DNA of 64,000 bases from Escherichia coli O127:H6 str. E2348/69 (GCF_000026545.1 NC_011601.1), one strand, 5' to 3'. Positions 7,496 to 10,909 are shown, counted from the first letter of the stretch. Notes: generated by a model from the sequence alone, not told the origin. A program made the numbers and translations.

Positions 7496-8533
7496 ATGTT
7501 TTCCGCATTGCGCCACCGTACCGCTGCCCTGGCGCTCGGCGTATGCTTTATTCTCCCCGTACACGCCTCGTCACCTAAACCTGGCGATTTTGCTAATACC
7601 CAGGCACGACATATTGCTACTTTCTTTCCGGGACGCATGACCGGAACTCCTGCAGAAATGTTATCTGCCGATTATATTCGCCAACAGTTTCAGCAAATGG
7701 GTTATCGCAGTGATATTCGGACATTTAATAGTCGGTATATTTATACCGCCCGCGATAATCGCAAGAGCTGGCATAACGTGACGGGAAGTACGGTGATTGC
7801 CGCTCATGAAGGCAAAGCGCCGCAGCAGATCATCATTATGGCGCATCTGGATACTTACGCCCCGCTGAGCGATGCTGACGCCGATGCCAATCTCGGCGGG
7901 CTAACGTTACAAGGAATGGATGATAACGCCGCAGGTTTAGGTGTCATGCTGGAACTGGCTGAACGCCTGAAAAATACGCCTACCGAGTATGGTATTCGAT
8001 TTGTGGCGACCAGCGGCGAAGAGGAAGGAAAATTAGGCGCTGAGAATTTACTCAAGCGGATGAGTGACACCGAAAAGAAAAATACGCTGCTGGTGATTAA
8101 TCTCGATAACTTAATTGTTGGCGATAAGCTGTATTTCAACAGTGGCGTAAAAACACCTGAAGCAGTAAGGAAATTAACGCGCGACCGGGCGCTGGCAATT
8201 GCCCGCAGCCATGGAATTGCCGCCACCACAAATCCAGGTTTGAATAAAAACTATCCGAAAGGCACCGGGTGTTGTAATGACGCAGAAATATTCGACAAAG
8301 CCGGTATTGCTGTACTTTCGGTGGAAGCGACTAACTGGAATCTTGGCAATAAGGATGGTTATCAGCAACGCGCAAAAACAGCCGCATTCCCTGCAGGAAA
8401 TAGCTGGCATGACGTAAGACTGGATAATCAACAGCATATTGATAAGGCACTTCCTGGAAGAATAGAACGCCGCTGCCGTGATGTTATGCGGATAATGCTA
8501 CCGCTGGTGAAGGAGCTGGCGAAGGCATCTTAA
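7496..8533 (+). CDS. iap: alkaline phosphatase isozyme conversion aminopeptidase (M28 family)
   Basis: 345-aa ORF with a signal peptide (AALALGVCFILPVHA) and M28 metal-ligand region (HLDT...DDNAAG...GEEEG). Divergent from cysD as in K-12. Confidence 0.93.
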   Translation: MFSALRHRTAALALGVCFILPVHASSPKPGDFANTQARHIATFFPGRMTGTPAEMLSADYIRQQFQQMGYRSDIRTFNSRYIYTARDNRKSWHNVTGSTVIAAHEGKAPQQIIIMAHLDTYAPLSDADADANLGGLTLQGMDDNAAGLGVMLELAERLKNTPTEYGIRFVATSGEEEGKLGAENLLKRMSDTEKKNTLLVINLDNLIVGDKLYFNSGVKTPEAVRKLTRDRALAIARSHGIAATTNPGLNKNYPKGTGCCNDAEIFDKAGIAVLSVEATNWNLGNKDGYQQRAKTAAFPAGNSWHDVRLDNQQHIDKALPGRIERRCRDVMRIMLPLVKELAKAS

Positions 8534-8657: not shown

Positions 8658-8810
8658 CTACTTCTTCGATTCGTAAGCGAGAACTGCCTTAAACTCCATA
8701 CCACGTTCTCTGATACTCAACTCACACAACGAGTCGCCTACCATCAACGTGAATCCCAGTACTGTACAACACAGTACGATGATTGCCACAAGGGCATATT
8801 TTGTCAGCAT
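8658..8810 (-). CDS. Hok/Gef-family type I toxin (50 aa); coding frame intact but separated from its own SD, leader and promoter by the IS
   Basis: My own translation of the minus strand is [50 protein letters not shown]. It has an N-terminal TM helix, the conserved SLCE cysteine motif and a C-terminal AYES-K tail as in Hok of plasmid R1, and closely resembles K-12 HokE as I recall it. It falls below the 60-aa cutoff of the ORF track. Confidence 0.85.
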
Positions 8811-8813
8811 GTC

Positions 8814-9909
8814 TGTGTAAGTTCACAGAGATATTGCAATTGCCTCCGGATAAGTAAGGGGAGATTGCACTATGCAAATGCAGCATCTGATGGTTGGCTA
8901 TCCTAAGTACTACCAAACGGCCGATTATGCGTTGAGGCTTTCAGTGATGGCTGATATAGCAACAATGAGAATGAAGGCTCTGCACTTCTGGGATAAACAC
9001 GGTATTTCTGCAGCTTCTGAAGCCTTTGGCGTGTCCTGCCGCACGCTTTACTGGTGGCGTCAGTTACTGAACAAGGAAGGACCTGAGGGGCTAATCCCGC
9101 ACAGTAAGGCACCTCTGGTGCGACGAAAAAAACACTGGCATCCCGATGTGCTGAAAGAGATTCGACGCCTCAGGACAGAGCTGCCGAACCTCGGTAAAGA
9201 GCAGATTTTTGTTCGCCTGAAGCCCTGGTGCGAACAGCGCTATCTGGCCTGTCCGAGTGTTTCCACCATCGGCAGAATGATCGCTGCCGCACATGATAAA
9301 ATGCGGATGATACCTGTGCGTCTGGGATCGCGGGGGAAGGCACTGCTTGTCAAAAAGCGGTCTGCCAAACCCCGCAGGCCAAAGCACTACCGCCCGGTAA
9401 AGACAGGTGAGCTCATTGGGATGGACGCCATTGAGCTCAGAATGGGCGAACTGCGTCGCTATGTCATCACCATGATCGACGAATGCAGCAATTACGCGCT
9501 GGCGCTGGCTGTGCCGTCACTCAACAGTGATATCGTCAATCACTTCTTCAGCCGCGCAGCCCGGTTGTTCCCGGTCGGTATCAGCCAGATAATCACAGAT
9601 AACGGAAAAGAGTTCCTGGGAAACTTCGACAAAACGCTGCAGGAAGCCGCTATCAAACACCTCTGGACCTATCCCTACACGCCAAAAATGAACGCTATCT
9701 GTGAACGTTTTAACCGGACGTTAAGAGAGCAGTTTATTGAATTTAATGAGATTTTACTCTTTGAAGATCTGGCGCTATTTAACCAGAAGCTGGCGGAATA
9801 TCTGGTGCTGTATAACAGCAAAAGACCCCACAAGGCGCTCGCACTAATGACGCCCGTGGAATATATTTTAAAAGAGAATAAAAATTGCAATATGTGGTGG
9901 ACCCATACA
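8814..9909 (+). mobile_element. ~1.1 kb insertion sequence, single-ORF DDE (rve) transposase, IS481-like (IS3 superfamily)
   Basis: Imperfect terminal inverted repeats: left TGTGTAAGTTCACAGAGATATTGCAATT, and reverse complement of the right end TGTATGGGTCCACCACATATTGCAATT (TGT...ACA ends, about 20 of 28 matches, one indel). Flanked by a 5-bp direct repeat ATGTC (8809-8813 and 9910-9914). Confidence 0.8.
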
Positions 9910-10146
9910 ATGTCTTGCCTCCTTGCAAAGAAGAGACTAACATCCGAATTGCTTAGGTTCGAACGTAGGCCTCAGGTTGATAGAAATATCGCCTGGGGCT
10001 TTTGTCCATCTGGAACCTCGCGAATGCTTAACGCCAGACAGCCTCAAGCACCCAACGCCATTCTATACCTGTTAATTTTCCCTGCGATGTTCACCTTTAA
10101 ATGCCGGAATGCTGCTCGCAAAATAAAAACGCCCCATCATTTCTGA
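8872..10146 (+). CDS. IS transposase (HTH + rve/DDE integrase core); the ORF runs through the right IR, and the last ~79 codons are read-through into flanking DNA
   Basis: 424-aa ORF with SD AAGGGGAG 9 nt upstream. It has an N-terminal HTH region (GVSCRTLYWWRQ) and a DDE triad context (IGMDAIE ... ITDNGKEF ... YTPKMNAICERFNRTLREQF). No stop codon occurs before the IS end at 9909. Confidence 0.8.
   Translation: MQMQHLMVGYPKYYQTADYALRLSVMADIATMRMKALHFWDKHGISAASEAFGVSCRTLYWWRQLLNKEGPEGLIPHSKAPLVRRKKHWHPDVLKEIRRLRTELPNLGKEQIFVRLKPWCEQRYLACPSVSTIGRMIAAAHDKMRMIPVRLGSRGKALLVKKRSAKPRRPKHYRPVKTGELIGMDAIELRMGELRRYVITMIDECSNYALALAVPSLNSDIVNHFFSRAARLFPVGISQIITDNGKEFLGNFDKTLQEAAIKHLWTYPYTPKMNAICERFNRTLREQFIEFNEILLFEDLALFNQKLAEYLVLYNSKRPHKALALMTPVEYILKENKNCNMWWTHTMSCLLAKKRLTSELLRFERRPQVDRNIAWGFCPSGTSRMLNARQPQAPNAILYLLIFPAMFTFKCRNAARKIKTPHHF
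9915..10065 (-). promoter_or_regulatory. orphaned hok promoter and leader (tac 5' end, small mok-like leader ORFs, Sok target, hok SD)
   Basis: Minus strand reads TAGAAT (-10, 10065-10060), then 6 nt, then GGGTGCTTGAGGCTGTCTGG (compare the R1 hok 5' end GGCGCTTGAGGCTTTCTG as I recall it) ... CTTTGCAAGGAGGCAAGACAT. Joining across one copy of the ATGTC duplication restores AAGGAGGCAAGACATGCTGACA, that is SD plus 6 nt plus the hok ATG. Confidence 0.65.
9950..10004 (+). ncRNA. candidate Sok-like antisense RNA (~55-65 nt)
   Basis: Plus-strand promoter with -35 TTGCCT (9915-9920), 17-nt spacer and -10 TAACAT (9938-9943). Terminator hairpin GCCUCAGG/CCUGGGGC (9969-9999) followed by UUUU (10000-10003). 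The RNA is fully antisense to the hok leader. The ends are predicted, not measured. Confidence 0.5.
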
Positions 10147-10157
10147 CAGAGGCGTTT
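10127..10157 (-). terminator. intrinsic terminator downstream of cysH
   Basis: Minus strand reads AAACGCC-17 nt loop-GGCGTTT followed by TTATTTT, 18 nt after the cysH stop. Confidence 0.55.
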
Positions 10158-10174
10158 AATTTATCCGGCAATAT

Positions 10175-10909
10175 TTACCCTTCGTGTAATCCACATTCCC
10201 TTTTTAAGCCAAAGAAACGCGTTTCTTCTTCCGCCATGCCGGGTTCCCATTTACGGGTTGTATGGGTATCGCCCACCGATAAATATCCTTCATCCCATAA
10301 TGGGTGATATTTCAGGCCATGTTTTTGCAGGTACTGATAAATAGTTCGGTTATCCCAGTCGATAATCGGCAGCACTTTAAATACGCCACGCTGAATTGCC
10401 AGCACCGGTAAATTGGCGCGACTGCCGGATTGTTCACGGCGCAGGCCAGCAAACCAGGTTTGCGCATTCAGTTCTTTCAGCGCCCGGTTCATCGGTTCGA
10501 CTTTGTTGATGTCATTGTACTTTTCAATGCCTTCAACGCCCTGCTCCCACAGTTTGCCGTAGCGTGCTTCCTGCCAGGCGGCGCTTTCGGTAGCACGATA
10601 CACTTTCAGGTTGAGCTTGAGTTTGTCCGTTAACTCGTCAATAAAGCGGTAGGTTTCCGGGAACAGATAGCCGGTATCGGTGAGGATCACTGGAATATCC
10701 GGGCGAATCTGATTCACCAGATGCAGACTCACCGCCGCCTGAATGCCAAAGCTGGAAGAAAGTACATATTCACCGGGCAGATTATCCAGCGCCCAGGCTA
10801 CGCGGCCTTCAGCGTCCAGTTTTTCCAGTTGGGCGTTAGTTTCCGCCAGCGCCAGAATCCGGTCTACCTTTGGCAGTTCGTTCAGGGCGTTTAGATCGAG
10901 TTTGGACAT
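10175..10909 (-). CDS. cysH: phosphoadenosine phosphosulfate (PAPS) reductase
   Basis: Track ORF 10175..11062. The conserved start [21 protein letters not shown] is Met52 of that ORF, giving 244 aa. It has the C-terminal ECGLH motif. The upstream extension runs through a REP element and is not coding. Confidence 0.95.

Follow-up and report, generated by a model that had tools for sequence, protein, structure and literature searches.

A stop-less IS481-family transposase frame and its host-encoded tail at the hok/sokX locus of Escherichia coli O127:H6 E2348/69

Where does a transposase end if the insertion sequence that encodes it carries no stop codon, and what is to be made of the residues contributed by the adjoining DNA? 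The question is posed by a 64,000-nucleotide stretch of the genome of Escherichia coli O127:H6 str. E2348/69 (GCF_000026545.1, NC_011601.1), analyzed here as a whole and called the window, in which an ISKpn28-like insertion sequence of the IS481 family (8814-9909, + strand) is lodged in a hok/sokX locus. The transposase open reading frame (ORF) spans 8872-10146 on the + strand and specifies 424 amino acids. Its element-encoded part (8872-9909; 346 codons) comprises helix-turn-helix and rve (DDE) domains and ends ...CNMWWTHT without a stop, and the host-encoded extension (9910-10146, + strand), which has no Pfam match, adds 78 codons (9910-10143) and a TGA (10144-10146) that lies in the loop of the cysH terminator. 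An initial annotation, made from the sequence alone, had the 424-residue ORF remaining open past the right inverted repeat at 9909 and stopping at 10146, with about 79 C-terminal codons supplied by the insertion site; these coordinates are correct, and the count of 79 includes the stop. The last base of codon 346 (ACA) is 9909, so that the frame exits the element on a codon boundary, and the same ACA doubles as the terminal CA of the right inverted repeat. The whole situation is, in our judgement, probably explained by an element that has no stop, a target that supplies one and a tail that, in the window, is fortuitous.

The limits of the element (1096 bp, with the ends TGTGTAAG...CCCATACA) are established by independent insertion sites, namely, hokD prophage loci, a plasmid, galF-yegH, iss-iroB and copies of ISKpn28. 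Both ends are common to all the compared copies and the sequences outside differ at once; in particular, at least five independent sites diverge directly after CCCATACA and fix the right end at 9909. The inverted-repeat core ATATTGCAATT is located at 8831-8841 and 9883-9893, and the same core has been reported for ISKpn28 (PMC6101004). Comparison with empty sites identified the two copies of the target-site duplication ATGTC, the left one at 8809-8813, where it holds the A and the T of the hok start codon on the opposite strand, and the right one, for which the junctions were used as well, at 9910-9914. The uninterrupted allele GTCAGCATGTCTTGCCTCC, with one ATGTC, is contiguous in 4146 of 5426 complete E. 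coli genomes, empty sites read GTCAGCATGTCTTGCC across the position of the left duplication, and the exact element/hok junction of the window was found in only 36 genomes of the same set.

The ends of the element are imperfect terminal inverted repeats of the TGT...ACA type accompanied by the 5-bp duplication, as in IS481 elements, and a single long ORF spans all the transposase domains, with no programmed frameshift. The Pfam models rve and rve_3 match above their cut-offs, with the matches ending by residue 331, and the name “IS481-like element ISKpn28 family transposase” is given to relatives at 78-80% identity. By these comparisons, the window element is to be placed in the IS481 family, closest to ISKpn28. 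The latter, from Klebsiella pneumoniae, is about 79% identical in the protein and, along the full length of the element, about 75% identical in nucleotide sequence, and it shares the size of about 1.1 kb, the core ATATTGCAATT, the 5-bp duplication and a stop-less frame ending CNMWWTHT; it is nonetheless a distinct element by the usual nucleotide-identity criterion, and the Prokaryotic Genome Annotation Pipeline (PGAP) withholds the name ISKpn28 from the E. coli element. Copies with 90-95% identity represent the commonest class in E. coli (1118 records). The E. coli strain IAL7255 (NZ_CM130730.1) has copies at 38 places. A scan of species-representative genomes with the transposase recovered only fragmented Escherichia albertii contigs and remote relatives, which were useless for the analysis of flanks.

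To collect relatives of the transposase, 5.8 billion proteins were searched through a word index and 1.84 billion cluster representatives exhaustively with HMMER. All the relatives, including those as remote as about 31% identity, end in a motif resembling ...C/S-x-M-W-W-T-H-T and then diverge, with the start MQMQH... and the end ...WWTHT being shared among relatives. None of the more than 150 relatives examined has a stop before the terminal threonine codon (...ACA). The predicted lengths range from 347 to 662 amino acids, and the long proteins are fusions to the following gene, which in some cases is a nested second copy. The lack of a stop is a trait of this whole IS481 subgroup and not of the window element alone. 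Because there is no stop in the element, translation always ends in host DNA, and no fixed C-terminus is common to the copies. Separately, we observed that some ISKpn28 frames in Klebsiella enter a second copy, nested or in tandem, yielding predictions of a 400-560-amino acid “duplicated transposase.”

That the C-termini differ was borne out by the other copies, the comparison for which the initial annotation had called. E2348/69 itself contains a second copy (chromosome 2879377-2883276, adjoining rem) that is identical over 1096 of 1096 nucleotides; it sits at hokD, where TCTCC is duplicated, and its frame closes after a further 16 codons of host sequence, giving a 362-amino acid product with the tail SPCLPARKRLTYMCLA, which is unrelated to the window tail except for the first few residues derived from the hok leader. 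Tails in further copies comprise 11, 13, 16, 23, 25, 132 and more than 500 codons. The 132-codon tail belongs to the sister strain FEX669, in which the element occupies the same hokX site, and is due to a C run in the cysH terminator that differs by 1 nucleotide; over the part that they share, E2348/69 and FEX669 differ at six nucleotides, each of which changes or shifts the peptide. The initial annotation had also named two outcomes incompatible with a fortuitous extension, a conserved stop before the inverted repeat and a 79-residue tail shared among copies, and neither was encountered: no copy or relative has such a stop, and the tail consists of host DNA, which empty sites also contain. 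When the flank was shuffled, an open tail as long as 78 codons was obtained in 2.1% of the cases (median, 14), so the length is a mild outlier, unremarkable given many copies in many sites. The 78-codon tail is, as far as these comparisons indicate, non-functional read-through that lies outside the enzyme, fortuitous and unconstrained.

Two side observations concern these copies. The C run in the cysH terminator stem consists of four C's in E2348/69 (ACGCCCCATC) and five in other strains (ACGCCCCCATC), and the missing C sets the position of the transposase stop in E2348/69 and slightly weakens the terminator stem. In E. coli w264, a 94%-identical copy between galF and yegH lies upstream of yegH, a TerC-family gene, and its frame runs for more than 500 codons, in frame into yegH.

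In distant relatives, the end of the frame is not a matter of chance, and tail lengths are not geometrically distributed. In a census of 113 distinct tails from relatives outside the enterobacterial clade, the stop falls at the third codon, that is, after a tail of two residues, in 53 (4.3% expected), and the third residue is cysteine in 26, the two together accounting for 70%; furthermore, the second residue fits an NNT codon in 110 of 112. Combined, the stop or cysteine at the third codon and the NNT second codon specify T-T-G/A at positions +6 to +8 past the element. At the nucleotide level, the element of Acidithiobacillus caldus continues ...CATACA|GAGCC|TTGAAC, with GAGCC duplicated at the left end, four more relatives with two-residue tails read N5 followed by TTGA, and TTGA occupies +6 to +9 at 9 of 12 distant-relative sites, the window copy being different (TTGC). 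As in IS870-type elements, then, the frames of the subgroup contain no internal stop and usually end on a stop at a fixed position that is provided by the preferred target.

This target looks like a promoter. At all 12 distant-relative sites for which DNA was obtained, the element end is followed by 5 nucleotides, a hexamer of the form TTGAnn, TTGCnn or TGGACT, a spacer of 16-18 nucleotides and a TAnnnT-like hexamer. The -35/-10 pairs include TTGACA-17-TATAAT, TTGACG-16-TATAAT, TTGACA-18-CATAAT, TTGATA-17-TATGAT, TTGACT-17-TATTCT, TTGAAC-17-TAATCT, TTGCTT-17-TATAAA and TGGACT-17-CAGACT, as well as TTGCAA-16-TATAAT, which is located just upstream of a tRNA-like sequence. With a promoter score that sums the positions agreeing with TTGACA and the best agreement with TATAAT across spacers of 16-18 nucleotides, the mean was 9.17 at offset 5, 3.3-6.0 at the other offsets from 0 to 13 and about 3.5 in the mirrored left flanks; a score of at least 9 was reached at 0.15% of background offsets. 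The four sites that were found without regard to tail length score 9, 11, 10 and 12, and the three that were picked for tails other than two residues score 8, 8 and 7. Of 120 metagenome stretches retrieved with the right-end 15-mer, only 8 were true ends, which gave a small sample, and the rest, being chance matches, served as a negative control. The 5-bp duplication lies outside the promoter-like stretch at six loci (both ends being on one reliable contig), and the orientation of the element is always co-directional with the adjoining promoter. Given that the flanks are otherwise mutually unrelated, the promoter is part of the target and not of the element. A palindromic target was considered and rejected: the left flanks show no TTG complement, and their promoter scores are flat.

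In our reading, elements of the wider subgroup lie with only the duplicated target (5 bp) between their right end and the -35 box of a sigma-70-type promoter and with the transposase pointing in the direction of that promoter, and a frame reading ...ACA NNN NNT TGA ends on the TGA inside TTGAca, leaving a tail of two residues. In the window, the third codon past the element is TGC (cysteine), within the Sok -35 box TTGCCT, and there is no stop at this codon because the fourth base of the box is C (TTGC, not TTGA); the frame runs on for 78 codons, passing the Sok promoter, the Sok RNA and, in complement, the hok leader and promoter.

The anatomy of the hok/sokX locus, established by mapping, fits this geometry. 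The hok ORF (8658-8810, - strand; 50 amino acids; Hok/Gef, Pfam PF01848, E 5.7e-10) is intact, and its product (WP_000956458.1) is identical to that of uninterrupted loci. The Sok promoter (9915-9943, + strand) consists of the -35 box TTGCCT (9915-9920), which begins directly after the duplication, a 17-bp spacer and the -10 box TAACAT (9938-9943), located 7 nucleotides upstream of the mapped 5' end of K-12 sokX; the SokX antisense RNA homologue was delineated at 9951-10009 (+ strand) by alignment to K-12 sokX (b4701). The hok mRNA leader occupies 10053 down to about 9910 on the - strand, running from a 5' end that reads GGGUGCUUGAGG... as far as the Shine-Dalgarno sequence GGAGG (Rfam RF01794, 104.6 bits, E 3.6e-24), and a probable hok promoter -10 hexamer, TAGAAT (10060-10065, - strand), can be read 6 nucleotides upstream of the leader 5' end. 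The locus accordingly has a Hok/Gef ORF and a structured hok leader overlapped by an antisense Sok gene, the hallmarks of hok/sok, but the leader and the ORF are not contiguous: the 1096 bp of the element lie between the ATG (8808-8810) and the Shine-Dalgarno GGAGG (complement of 9919-9923), and no Shine-Dalgarno-like sequence was found upstream of the hok ATG at the left end of the element. With its promoter, leader and Shine-Dalgarno sequence all on the far side of the element, the hok ORF is predicted to be silent. A hok/sokX locus beside cysH is known in uropathogenic strains and is reduced to sokX alone in K-12 (PMC12736100).

The same arrangement recurs. The hokD-type loci read TCTCC|TTGCCT-17-TAACCT, and ISKpn28, which likewise occupies the Sok -35 edge in plasmid hok loci, reads TCTCC|TTGCCT-17-TATCCT in one and CCTCC|TTGCAA-17-CATACT in another, the latter adjoining psiA. 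In each of these loci, the Rfam hok-leader match is flush with the right end of the element, and none of the four hok-family sites is more than 8 bp away from the Sok -35 edge. Because the hok Shine-Dalgarno sequence and start codon are situated just upstream of the Sok -35 box, on the opposite strand, an insertion at this edge severs hok and spares Sok. The position of the window element beside the Sok -35 box thus appears to follow from the target preference of the element and not from accident. Targeting of the -35 edge would also account for the recurrent insertions at hok loci and for the co-occurrence of ISKpn28 with FlmC in plasmid leading regions, which was left unexplained in a survey of anti-CRISPR proteins (PMC12248084). 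Several further strikes were noted: of the four places that the element occupies in E2348/69, at least two involve Sok promoters, one ISKpn28-like copy is inside the spacer of a Sok promoter and not at the -35 edge, and another abuts a hok/sok fragment that is truncated after Sok, so that hok/sok loci are struck in more than one way.

With moderate confidence, we propose that the widespread ISKpn28-like subgroup, relatives of which occur in Acidithiobacillus and, in metagenomes, in diverse uncultured bacteria, integrates always co-oriented and exactly 5 bp upstream of sigma-70-type -35 boxes, leaving the core promoter intact, and has dispensed with a stop of its own as the TGA in TTGACA ends the frame. 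Several observations weigh against the explanation as a whole or narrow it. Five of the 12 distant sites were picked for two-residue tails, which preselects T-R-R at +7 to +9, and some metagenome copies are without matching duplications. In the enterobacterial clade, to which the window element and ISKpn28 belong, the register is weaker, with a score of at least 8 at 6 of 17 distinct sites (background, 0.8%), and sites that are not promoter-like include galF-yegH, iss-iroB and a position at +91 of mgrB that was obtained under colistin selection (PMC6101004). The -10 hexamers in register could reflect survivorship beside real promoters and fall short of proving recognition of the whole promoter. 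The membership of the window element in the family is itself marginal by one measure, the NCBIfam model NF033577 (transpos_IS481) giving 220.8 bits with a cut-off of 224, about 3 bits below, although the IS3 model (97 bits, cut-off 160) is far behind it. In the enterobacterial clade, the preference for the -35 edge is best described as a bias that is far from absolute.

Survivorship is also the core of the alternative that fares best, namely, that selection alone, favoring the loss of a toxin and tolerating intergenic insertions, made the pattern with no recognition of the target. Only persisting insertions are sampled, the enterobacterial clade also inserts elsewhere, and IS150 and IS186 reportedly disrupt hok loci of K-12 as well. 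However, selection cannot set a register to the single nucleotide, and the score peaks sharply at offset 5 and is flat elsewhere; the orientation is always co-directional, and the third codon is a stop or cysteine in 70% of the 113 distinct tails. Moreover, insertion anywhere within about 400 bp would serve to inactivate hok, yet the four hok sites cluster at the Sok -35 edge. Selection on its own is therefore improbable as the full account, and we infer that the transposase, or its complex, recognizes the -35 edge.

A second alternative is that the tail is used, either because flank-encoded C-termini tune the transposase at each site or because read-out RNA occludes the Sok promoter or adds antisense RNA to the hok leader. 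The latter two effects were raised in the initial annotation, and the anatomy on which they depend, a frame running in the Sok direction and antisense to the hok leader and promoter, is confirmed by the mapping; the geometry permits both. Read-out is real for IS481, transposase transcripts of which run beyond the element in 101 cases in Bordetella pertussis (PMC6161684), and variable flank-encoded C-termini are expressed for IS1239 (PMC13630536). Against use of the tail, strains that share the insertion have tails of different length, 78 codons in one and 132 in the other, and no substitution leaves the peptide unchanged. A strong intrinsic terminator of Sok (9967-10009, + strand; a hairpin at 9967-10003 followed by CUUUUGU; -27.1 kcal/mol, z -4.3) stands between the end of the element and the stop codon of the frame and should halt most read-out RNA about 95 nucleotides past the element. 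Sok promoters are strong, and a weak transcript from upstream is unlikely to matter against them; with hok already disabled by the separation from its leader, nothing is left to regulate. All told, a role for the tail is doubtful, even a little more so than an origin by selection alone.

What the stop-less frame would entail for expression of the window copy follows from the same terminator. Most read-out transcripts would end near 10005, some 95 nucleotides past the element and about 140 nucleotides short of the stop, and since the Sok terminator is inside the tail, most transposase read-out RNAs would lack a stop codon. Ribosomes would then reach the end of a non-stop mRNA, and the product would pass to the rescue and degradation pathway. 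Little full-length 424-amino acid protein and little effect on Sok are to be expected, and the long tail probably lowers or abolishes the activity of the window copy.

A third possibility, that the window copy lost its stop by mutation and that in intact elements the frame stops ahead of the right inverted repeat or inside it, derives from the annotation, in which PGAP labels the window coding sequence a pseudogene with a “missing C-terminus” (read from the E2348/69 record NZ_CP059840.2, which is 100% identical over the element and its flanks). This label merely marks the end of homology to the PGAP reference; PGAP lists the identical hokD copy of this strain as an intact “IS481 family transposase” of 362 amino acids, the last 16 of which are host-encoded, and no stop precedes the terminal ...ACA in the more than 150 relatives. 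A mutational origin is accordingly very hard to credit. Least credible of all, to the point of being negligible, is an element that extends past 9909 and carries the 78-codon tail as a genuine C-terminal domain, for although the tail exceeds that of 98% of shuffled flanks, 9915-10146 is contiguous with hok in thousands of element-free genomes, the tail DNA is SokX, hok leader and cysH terminator, the tails of other copies are unrelated, and no Pfam match extends past residue 331.

Among known systems, the hok loci of K-12 provide a parallel for the locus: hokA, hokC and hokE were reportedly found by Pedersen and Gerdes in 1999 to be disrupted by IS150 or IS186, and there, too, the hok ORF is said to be intact and silenced by the adjoining insertion, with Sok kept. 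The window locus differs from these in the family of the element, in a position set to the nucleotide by the Sok promoter and in the recurrence of the arrangement in several hok families and with two element species. IS481 of B. pertussis belongs to the same family as the window element and shares with it the DDE/rve transposase and the TGT...ACA ends. According to an account attributed to Stibitz in 1998, IS481 proper duplicates 6 bp at NCTAGN (the related ISLxc2 may be compared), as opposed to the 5 bp beside a -35-like hexamer in the subgroup described here. The entry of transposase transcripts into neighboring DNA, reported for IS481 (PMC6161684), is a feature that the window element would have in common with it.

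Stops supplied by the flank have been reported for IS870, ISMt1, IS1547, IS1110 and IS1239 (PMC13630536); runaway transposase frames are, then, already known, and the window tail by itself is ordinary. IS870 and ISMt1 resemble the subgroup in that they have no internal stop and a preferred target provides one at a fixed distance (PMC13630536; Fournier et al. 1993, cited there). Their stop lies in the palindromic CTAG, whereas that of the subgroup is found past the duplication, as the TGA within a -35-like TTGAca; further, the target of the subgroup is asymmetric and fixes the orientation, unlike that of IS870 and ISMt1, and the TTGC variant in the window gives no stop. IS1239 of Streptococcus pyogenes resembles the window element in ending at the first in-situ host stop, with polymorphic tails (PMC13630536), but its state stems from a lineage-specific 1-bp deletion, whereas here the state goes back to the ancestor of a broad subgroup, in which target choice usually makes up for it. 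A literature search on -35 targeting, the use of the TGA in TTGACA or stop-less IS481-type frames returned nothing relevant, with ISfinder and TnPedia outside its reach and prior description there possible; an orientation-specific preference for the upstream edge of -35 boxes is apparently unreported.

For annotation, these observations suggest a simple rule, namely, that an enzyme of this subgroup ends at ...WWTHT plus whatever follows. Calls of a “missing C-terminus” and “fusion” proteins of 400-660 amino acids are artefacts in the subgroup, and pipelines are inconsistent, with one copy called a pseudogene and an identical one intact. If the target is truly recognized, insertion at the -35 edge would represent a low-cost “safe haven” strategy and a tool or model for promoter-directed integration in bacteria. 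Ty3 integrates at Pol III promoters, and the subgroup would then be the bacterial counterpart of such promoter-directed integration. Recognition would also give a mechanistic reason for the repeated strikes on Sok promoters in chromosomes, prophages and plasmid leading regions, and with it an explanation for the recurrent silencing of hok toxins and for the association of ISKpn28 with flmC/hok in those leading regions.

The remaining features of the locus are iap (7496-8533, + strand) on the hok side and, on the other side, the cysH intrinsic terminator (10122-10160, - strand), identified from a terminator scan, the predicted fold and the cysH annotation, and cysH itself (10175-10909, - strand). 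Rfam model RF01794, although named “sok,” is modelled on the hok mRNA leader, which it covers from the 5' end up to the AUG of hok, so that its matches mark the hok strand; the match in the window covers 9904-10053 (- strand), the last six aligned bases falling spuriously inside the element. Weak Rfam matches to ctRNA_p42d and sR19 were dismissed as being below the gathering score, the ctRNA_p42d match corresponding to the cysH terminator.

In K-12-like genomes, homology to hok/sokX starts at ...ATACA|CATGTCTTGCC, at most 1 nucleotide from the insertion point of the window (about 9905-9915) and following the same five bases that end the element, and the cas3 side takes the place of the hok ORF. 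The end-point of the K-12 hok deletion as a scar of the element was not supported, in that the 92-nucleotide spacer aligns to the element no better than shuffled sequences do; the coincidence of the breakpoints may be due to chance or to an old scar.

Short remnants of the element in other E. coli (three cases) are truncated by other insertion sequences and have no hok connection. A decayed copy, with frameshifts, an internal stop and an altered left end, lies between iss and iroB on ColV-type plasmids and is fixed in many virulence plasmids of avian and porcine E. coli; its neighbors are a remnant of a phage lysis gene and a match to the STnc490 RNA.

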